From Planctomycetota bacterium (GTDB taxonomy: Bacteria > Planctomycetota > UBA8108 > SXIK01), in contig OZ244999.1 in NCBI GenBank assembly GCA_965223265.1, forward strand, positions 7,616,001 to 7,680,000: a DNA stretch of 64,000 bases, read 5' to 3'. Under the pieces are notes generated by a model, which saw only the letters and a program-made list of their open reading frames with translations, was not told the DNA's origin and ran no database searches. This document shows, piece by piece, positions 956 to 1,423 of this stretch; the first letter of the stretch is position 1; each line of letters starts with the position of its first letter. The position numbers and the translations under genes were made by a program.

Positions 956-1423
956 CTAAAAGAGACTAGCAGTCGACTTCACCGCGATGCAGTCCTTGAC
1001 CGACATATAAGCGGGGCATTGAGAAGGATAGGTCTCGAGGGCTCGCTCGGCTTTATCTCGCAGCTCCACCGCCACCGAGATCCGAAAGTGCACCCGGATC
1101 TCGACGATTCGAATGACACGATCAACCTCCGCGATGTCACCCTCGACTTCTGCGACCAGTCGATCAGCCGTCGTGATTCCGCGCGCTTCCAGCGCGCTGG
1201 CAAATGTGCCACACAGTCACCCAGCGACGGCGGCGACCATATGGTCGAGCGTTGCGGGGTACTCACGATCGACTTCGACTCCGTACTTCGAATTGTAGAA
1301 CTCGAGGATGCCACCGTGGATTCCGTAGTGCACCGGCTCGTCGAGCGCCTCGAGTTCAGCGGTGCGGTGCGCACCAGCGTGCTTACGAATCACGGAACGA
1401 CTAGTGTGAATGACTCGACTCAT
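956..1423 (-). CDS. OsmC/Ohr-like peroxiredoxin, probable selenoprotein (in-frame TGA at 1217-1219 read as Sec), 155 aa
   Basis: ORF 1217..1423 continues in frame past TGA as ...PATLDHMVAAVAG-U-LCGTFASALEARGI...VEGDIAEVDRVIRIVEIRVHFRI...AERALETYPSQCPAYMSVKDCIAVKSTASLF to TAG at 956-958. The TGA occupies the first conserved OsmC Cys position and CP is the second conserved Cys. GAGG lies just upstream of the ATG. Confidence 0.8.
1181..1197 (-). promoter_or_regulatory. Candidate bacterial SECIS hairpin
   Basis: Minus-strand GCGCGCT-GGA-AGCGCGC forms a 7-bp stem with a G-initiated loop starting 27 nt after the UGA, consistent with the bacterial SECIS model. Confidence 0.55.

Follow-up and report, generated by a model that had tools for sequence, protein, structure and literature searches.

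We propose, at a probability of roughly 0.85, that positions 956 to 1,423 on the reverse strand of a 64,000-nucleotide stretch of DNA from a bacterium of the Planctomycetota (contig OZ244999.1, positions 7,616,001 to 7,680,000; hereafter the window) constitute a single gene encoding a selenoprotein of 155 residues with the OsmC/Ohr fold, in which an in-frame UGA would be recoded as selenocysteine (Sec, U) and whose likely role is hydroperoxide reduction. The computed support consists of i) a single reading frame; ii) the fold; iii) the equivalence of the catalytic columns with those of known OsmC proteins; iv) conservation of the TGA; v) purifying selection; vi) a hairpin that covaries among relatives; and vii) complete Sec machinery in the host genome. 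Recoding of this UGA had been suggested by an earlier sequence-only reading of the window, and the TGA/Cys pattern at the column, the machinery, and selection past the TGA all point to Sec insertion at this codon.

Reading frame, fold and catalytic columns

Under translation table 11 the gene appears as an open reading frame (ORF) of 68 codons running from the ATG at 1421-1423 to the TGA at 1217-1219. Translated with TGA as U, it continues for 86 further sense codons to the TAG at 956-958, a single frame of 155 codons in which codon 69 is the one internal TGA and past which there are no additional stops and no frameshifts; the extension of the 68-residue ORF 1217..1423 to 155 residues in the sequence-only reading was accurate in both coordinates and sequence. 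The read-through protein carries ...PATLDHMVAAVAG-U-LCGTFASALEAR... and, further on, ...QCPAY..., and the residues immediately before Sec are ...VAAVAG (peptide VAAVAG-U-LCGTFASALEAR). Because GC-rich DNA yields many long spurious ORFs, and the ORF list for the window contains many on both strands, too many for every one to be a gene, an open frame alone is weak evidence; this one stands above chance because one OsmC domain spans the TGA, and because the TGA column and both of its flanks are conserved in relatives.

The Pfam OsmC domain (PF02566) matches residues 56-149, spanning the TGA, at 48.4 bits (gathering threshold 27.5), and the same domain scored directly from genomic DNA gives 39.9 bits with one TGA inside the match. 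An AlphaFold2 model computed from a 50-sequence alignment is one compact alpha/beta domain with a mean predicted local distance difference test score (pLDDT) of 97.6 and a predicted TM-score (pTM) of 0.90. Foldseek returned 63 matches in the PDB at E <= 0.001, and those listed are all OsmC, Ohr, or OsmC-like, led by 2onf, 1lql, 1ukk, and Ohr/OsmC structures. The read-through product is one OsmC-fold protein across the TGA, not two proteins, and the assignment to the OsmC/Ohr fold in the sequence-only reading holds.

A profile alignment of 13 family members with the OsmC structures of E. coli (1qwi) and Thermus thermophilus (1ukk), in which columns were counted along the alignment, matches U69 to Cys59 and C136 to Cys125 in E. 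coli OsmC, which we take to be the peroxidatic and resolving cysteines. Both catalytic Cys columns of the two-cysteine OsmC peroxidases are occupied in the window protein, as the sequence-only reading had anticipated in placing Sec at the peroxidatic position and a second Cys in a CP motif (C136 of QCPAY); its further statement that this position lies at the end of a helix does not fit the predicted model, where U69 sits inside helix 58-79. Invariance across the 50 aligned sequences is confined to G34, C/U69, and C136, and the D60 column, an acidic residue nine positions before U69, is D or E in all 50. C71, two residues past Sec, is not conserved: other members have T, M, L, C, or I.

TGA, cysteine and the selenocysteine machinery

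The gene is present in 6 of 61 genomes (the host and 60 relatives), and each of the other five has exactly one TGA inside the match, at the identical column in all five (VA[AG]V[AG]G-U-L). A scan of species-representative genomes, seeded with the five closest Sec forms, found 17 loci (four from genomes already among the relatives), and a metagenome scan, seeded with Cys as well as Sec forms, found 340 relatives, of which 80 were kept and 79 had a locatable motif. The column reads TGA at 16 of the 17 genome loci (TGC at the other) and at 69 of the 79 readable metagenome loci (TGC or TGT at 10), proportions that are biased since both locus scans used peptide patterns taken from family members. 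The titles of the 17 genome loci name Planctomycetota, Gemmataceae, Isosphaeraceae, Desulfobacteraceae, Syntrophobacterales, Syntrophorhabdales/-aceae, Acidobacteriota, Nitrospinota, Candidatus Lambdaproteobacteria, and Dehalococcoidia, and the consensus motif of the branch over genome and metagenome loci is U-[LM]-x-G-T. Within the phylum as sampled the gene is rare, occurring in only 2 of 401 genomes at E <= 1e-8.

When 1.84 billion representative proteins were searched with HMMER, independently of any such pattern, 322 matched at E <= 0.001. Among the best 150 of these, 75 span the column (61 with Cys, three each with R and G, two each with A and S, and one each with W, D, F, and L), 39 are N-terminal pieces that end exactly before it, 10 are C-terminal pieces that begin just after it, and 26 are other partial matches; the three nearest word-index matches are stubs ending in ...VASVAG. 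Such pieces are what the sequence-only reading had foreseen in saying that annotation would split the gene; homologs have TGA or Cys here and are conserved on either flank, which answers in the affirmative the check that it suggested. The W belongs to P0007, a library representative of 152 residues and 50% identity, and is probably the product of a gene call under a code that reads TGA as Trp, in other words another hidden Sec form. Sec and Cys forms can be close, as in Sec form L041 and Cys form P0005 (61% identity). The TGA/Cys pattern at this one column is the classic Sec/Cys signature, and the pieces show gene callers cutting the family in two.

The region past the TGA is under purifying selection: in four pairwise comparisons with relatives, codons 70-155 have a ratio of nonsynonymous to synonymous substitution rates (dN/dS) of 0.17-0.25, on a par with the 0.15-0.29 of codons 1-68. 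An OsmC-like gene killed by a nonsense mutation at its catalytic Cys codon would account for the 68-residue ORF that is all table 11 yields, and would need but a single-base change from TGC or TGT to TGA; such a pseudogene is highly improbable, and can be ruled out because of the purifying selection past the TGA, where no second stop or frameshift has accumulated, and because the TGA stands at the same column in all five relatives and at most of the genome (16 of 17) and metagenome (69 of 79) loci, spread over several phyla. Still less credence, indeed almost none, attaches to a sequencing or assembly error in a true TGC or TGT codon. Contigs assembled from four runs, which represent two samples of one study, span 900-1500 free of other letters and of gaps, so that the TGA came through unchanged in this further check proposed by the sequence-only reading; these contigs are possibly the source of the assembly itself, and the stronger argument is the TGA at the same column in independent, unrelated assemblies of other organisms.

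The host genome, a single contig of 9.18 Mb, encodes selA, selB, selD, and a tRNA-Sec with anticodon TCA (Table 1), as the sequence-only reading had expected of this planctomycete. A second tRNA-Sec-like match (46.5 bits) proved to be tRNA-Ser(GCT). Among the relatives that carry the gene, selA is present in five of five and a tRNA-Sec above the cut-off in four of five; the one exception is a genome of 1400 contigs and 82% completeness. TGA is still an ordinary stop, because orthologous genes in four relatives terminate at TGA. Translation of the UGA without selenium, whether by near-cognate insertion of Trp or Cys or by genome-wide reassignment of TGA, could be read into the W of P0007 were that residue not presumably a TGA=Trp gene call; it is quite improbable in a genome with a release factor 2 gene (prfB, 482.5 bits), with complete Sec machinery including tRNA-Sec(TCA), and with relatives in which the same gene ends with TGA, and for a column at which 61 of 75 spanning homologs have Cys instead of Trp or Gly.

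Elsewhere in the host genome, four AhpC/TSA-type matches and one Rdx match have one TGA each, and in four of these the TGA contexts read CVQ-U, T-U-PVC, G-U-GPC, and W-U-GPC, which are canonical CxxU/UxxC redox motifs. The likely selenoprotein loci, all outside the window, lie at 973878-974102 (+), 8072153-8072548 (-), 1991706-1992056 (-), 7582879-7583220 (+), and 8063664-8063936 (+), and comprise one Rdx/SelW-like type with CVQ-U and AhpC/TSA- or thioredoxin-like types with T-U-PVC, G-U-GPC, and W-U-GPC; the fifth locus is known from its one-TGA flag only. From these sequences the organism seems to have a sizeable selenoproteome. Its selD occupies the C-terminal half of an ORF of 767 residues (3459482-3461785 (+), also outside the window), in which an N-terminal pyridine nucleotide-disulphide oxidoreductase of 320 residues (PF07992) is followed by AIRS and AIRS_C; SelD fusions of this kind have been reported before.

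The distribution of Sec and Cys was placed on a quick maximum-likelihood tree of 132 rows, 81 of them Sec forms from loci and 51 Cys forms (10 loci and 41 full-length library proteins), from which fragments, non-Cys rows, duplicates, and loci with fewer than 50 residues before or 70 after the column were excluded; the catalytic column was set to C in every row and hence carries no signal. The tree requires 8 Sec/Cys changes (mean of 40.6 when shuffled), and well-supported branches force 6 of these. Every Sec form falls in one clade of 102 rows (support 96 in the Shimodaira-Hasegawa-like approximate likelihood ratio test, SH-aLRT), and the 27 rows opposite are all Cys; the window protein belongs to an all-Sec clade of 8 (support 99) made up of planctomycete genomes and one metagenome-assembled genome (MAG) titled Desulfobacteraceae. 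As the root is arbitrary and many terminal branches are long, no direction of Sec/Cys change was drawn. The MAG sequence in question (L036, titled uncultured Desulfobacteraceae) nests beside Gemmataceae and Planctomycetaceae copies, which could be horizontal transfer or a binning error.

The candidate recoding hairpin

Beginning 19 bases past the UGA (+20..+36) is a hairpin, GCGCGCU-GGA-AGCGCGC, with 7 base pairs and the loop GGA, which is probably the selenocysteine insertion sequence (SECIS) of the gene; a stem-loop just past the UGA with a G in a small apical loop is how PMC1088965 words the bacterial signal. Among 36 Sec-form genes picked by the protein motif [AV]-L/Q-[ED]-[AV]-R alone, 27 keep 7 of 7 pairs, 6 keep 6, one keeps 5, and 2 keep 4. 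Paired cells amount to 94.4% in these 36, compared with 87.6% in shuffles, while hairpin registers slid along the alignment reach at most 65.9%. Three of the seven pairs have changed on both sides, 29-45 (GC/CG), 32-42 (CG/UA), and 33-41 (GC/AU), with 19 compensatory cells (4.6 expected) and a covariation of 0.326 (0.192 in shuffles); none of 500 shuffles reaches the observed value in any of these three measures, paired cells, compensatory cells, or covariation. In the inner two covariations an Ala/Val replacement is coupled to a synonymous Ala change nine bases off, and because a replacement is there tied to a synonymous change at that distance, these two go beyond coding.

A number of observations tell against this assignment. 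The hairpin lies within the codons of the conserved A-L-E-A-R helix, so its conservation is partly coding; the 76 nucleotides around the UGA, folded alone, are no more stable than expected (z -0.32, 69 of 200 shuffles being as stable); and an Rfam scan of 900-1500 at E <= 10 found no SECIS family, only chance-level matches (xerDC, a small nucleolar RNA, rsmX, and a long non-coding RNA). Two of the five measures fail to beat shuffles, namely the count of pairs changed on both sides (3 compared with 2.2 in shuffles, 176 of 500 reaching it) and the number of further pair types (6 compared with 7.2, 499 of 500 reaching it), and kinship among the sequences inflates all such shuffle tests. Among eight Cys forms, two have 7 of 7 pairs and another four have 6 of 7; with most pairs often kept in Cys forms, the contrast between Sec and Cys hairpins is less sharp than one would wish, and we do not use it as proof. 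Finally, the register is broken in the U-M-T-G-T...ALAAR group (L067-L102) and in the U-M-M-G-T group (L037, L039, L042, L128, and L132-L136).

By eye, other palindromic stems can be seen in both of these groups at a shorter distance from the UGA. One of them is GCUAGC-N6-GCUAGC at +12..+29, in which the two Leu codons are either both CTA or both CTG. One helix-coding stretch may therefore harbor different SECIS solutions, and the assignment may not be uniform across the branch.

Function, known relatives and surroundings

We envisage the following sequence of events: SelB and Sec-tRNA(Sec) would recode the UGA at codon 69, probably guided by the mRNA hairpin at +20..+36 with GG in its loop; Sec69 would stand in place of the OsmC peroxidatic cysteine and Cys136 in place of the resolving cysteine; the Sec69 selenolate would attack ROOH to give a selenenic acid; condensation of this acid with Cys136 would yield a selenenylsulfide; and the latter, as in OsmC and Ohr, would be reduced again by a thiol or lipoyl donor.

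That the reaction is hydroperoxide reduction specifically is a proposition to which we lean by only a little over even odds. We put only moderate weight on it because none of the Arg columns is invariant (41 of 50 sequences have R or K at R20, and 44 of 50 have R at R81) and because no curated peroxidase subfamily model is reached: the window protein scores 15.2 bits with TIGR03562 (OsmC; cut-off 85.8) and 16.3 bits with the SACOL1771 model (cut-off 166), the Ohr model gives no listed match to it at E <= 1, and two other branch members reach 17.6-17.7 bits with TIGR03561 (Ohr; cut-off 88.85). A genuine OsmC-fold selenoprotein that is not a hydroperoxide reductase, and whose Sec69 and Cys136 serve disulfide or persulfide exchange or the reduction of another electrophile, would fit scores that are far below the curated peroxidase subfamilies in the window protein and in six other Sec forms scanned, the variable Arg columns, a top structural match (Ta0195, 2onf) titled as a putative OsmC protein, and neighboring genes (a sulfatase and a HEAT/DUF7133/cytochrome c protein) that give no functional hint and are not conserved in 20 loci of relatives. 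We nevertheless regard such a function as unlikely: both OsmC catalytic cysteine columns and the acidic residue nine positions before the first are kept, all named structures among the fold matches listed are OsmC or Ohr proteins, and Sec commonly replaces a peroxidatic Cys.

Table 1. Features of the OsmC-like gene in the window and scores of the host genome's Sec and release factor genes.
Feature	Position	Strand	Observation
Whole gene, predicted selenoprotein	956..1423	-	155 codons + TAG; encodes one OsmC/Ohr-fold domain
ATG start codon	1421..1423	-	GAGG 8-11 nucleotides upstream; aligned Met is the start in five relatives' genes
In-frame TGA, codon 69	1217..1219	-	Probably read as selenocysteine; aligns with Cys59 of E. 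coli OsmC
Candidate SECIS hairpin GCGCGCU-GGA-AGCGCGC	1181..1197	-	+20..+36 after UGA; within S-A-L-E-A-R codons
TGC codon for Cys136 (QCPAY), likely resolving cysteine	1016..1018	-	Invariant, 50/50; aligns with Cys125
TAG, true stop codon	956..958	-	Frame reading
selA	host genome		548.1 bits, over curated cut-off
selB	host genome		324.1 bits (355.8 including C-terminal piece), over curated cut-off
selD	host genome		308.8 bits, over curated cut-off
tRNA-Sec	host genome		70.3 bits, gathering score 47; anticodon TCA (ARAGORN tRNA-SeC)
RF2 (prfB)	host genome		482.5 bits

Among proteins of known structure, the two-cysteine hydroperoxide reductases of E. coli and Thermus thermophilus (OsmC; 1qwi, 1nye, 1ukk) have the same fold and the Cys59/Cys125 columns, as well as an acidic residue that precedes the first Cys by about 9-10 positions, but differ in having a peroxidatic Cys where the window protein has Sec, and identity is about 15-20% (Foldseek). 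The Ohr proteins (6ebg, 6eb4, 1usp, and others) have the fold and the two-cysteine layout in common with it. The best structural match is Ta0195 of Thermoplasma acidophilum (2onf_A; E 3e-9, TM-score 0.79/0.86, root-mean-square deviation 2.3), which is also the sole PDB match to the single sequence; it has Cys instead of Sec at the aligned column and 14% identity, and its entry title, from structural genomics, names no function.

OsmC-like selenoproteins are not new. They are described from the Sargasso Sea by Zhang, Fomenko and Gladyshev in 2005 (3 sequences, COG1765, motif UxxT; PMC1088965) and again from GOS (Global Ocean Sampling) data (5 sequences; PMC2398784), the family is included in two reviews (PMC9312934, PMC13188914), and full Sec-insertion gene sets of Planctomycetes were published in 2016 (PMC4807772), the main text of which does not contain the word OsmC. 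The sequence-only reading was right that Sec-containing OsmC-like proteins had been reported, and it overrated the novelty of the present one, given that both OsmC-like selenoproteins and planctomycete Sec machinery are in print. Our literature search found no specific description of the present OsmC branch; what is new is a member in a branch that lies outside the reach of the present curated models.

Like the published OsmC-like family, the window protein belongs to PF02566, and has a length in the range of about 140-155 residues; in both, the first catalytic column is occupied by Sec or Cys and trailed by x-x-G-T, and a CP motif supplies the second Cys. Both have Cys homologs and a predicted hairpin after the UGA with a G in its loop (PMC1088965). 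The motif differs, the published UxxT (PMC1088965) corresponding here to U-L-C-G-T, where G stands at +3 and T at +4; going by the published motif description, the 2005 sequences may lie outside the present branch. The published OsmC-like selenoproteins include AACY01145085, MBR72571.1, and MCS5647933.1. Nor does the NCBIfam model NF041052, 'OsmC-related (seleno)protein' (OsmC_like_Se), take in the present branch: against a cut-off of 95 the window protein scores 12.6 bits, six other Sec forms score 13.3-26.4 bits, one Cys form scores 28.7 bits, and the Cys form P0008 has no listed match. The catalytic column is nevertheless equivalent to that of the NF041052 family, because two planctomycete genes resembling that family read ...GCFIGT.../...RCPV... 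and ...GCFIAM.../...RCPV....

A second OsmC-domain gene of the host genome (8816216-8816533 (-), outside the window) has no internal stop and scores 63.4 bits with Pfam OsmC and, as the genome's best match elsewhere, 24.6 bits with NF041052; because of it, the Sec form is not the only OsmC-type protein of the genome.

Tentatively, and at a little less than even odds, we place the gene in a large OsmC superfamily branch in which Sec predominates; this branch would be distinct from NF041052/UxxT and lack a curated model, with a range of at least five phyla, at least 6-8 Sec/Cys switches, varied SECIS solutions, and members that are nearly always annotated as two fragments.

Downstream of the gene on the same strand lies a sulfatase gene (PF00884, 151.6 bits), and upstream, divergently oriented, is a gene whose 1022-residue product has HEAT repeats, DUF7133, and a cytochrome c motif. 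Homologs of these two neighbors occur within 1.5 kb of the gene in none of 20 loci from relatives, which leaves no operon logic; because neither neighbor is conserved there, the neighborhood is uninformative about function. A promoter and terminator scan of the gene region found no promoter-like sites and 2 terminator-like sites (0.9 expected). A stem-loop of the latter kind with a T-rich tail, a consensus match only, at 969-985 (-) of the window, overlaps the last codons and the TAG of the OsmC-like gene and lies about 60 nucleotides before the likely ATG of the sulfatase gene.

We wish to stress that none of this overturns current understanding; the interest is modest and specialist, and the practical value lies in annotation. 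Called in the standard way with table 11, the gene shrinks to a stub of 68 residues, and the catalytic half of an antioxidant-type enzyme is lost; stubs or tails make up 49 of the best 150 relatives in the library of 1.84 billion proteins. Because 49 of these 150 are fragmentary, the enzyme is undercounted in inventories of peroxide defence and selenium use in Planctomycetota, Desulfobacterota, Acidobacteriota, and others. Numerous natural Sec/Cys pairs on a single scaffold that is small and well folded would be convenient for asking what Sec gains over Cys in an OsmC-type active site, and the hairpin may provide a case of a SECIS co-evolving with the codons of a conserved helix.

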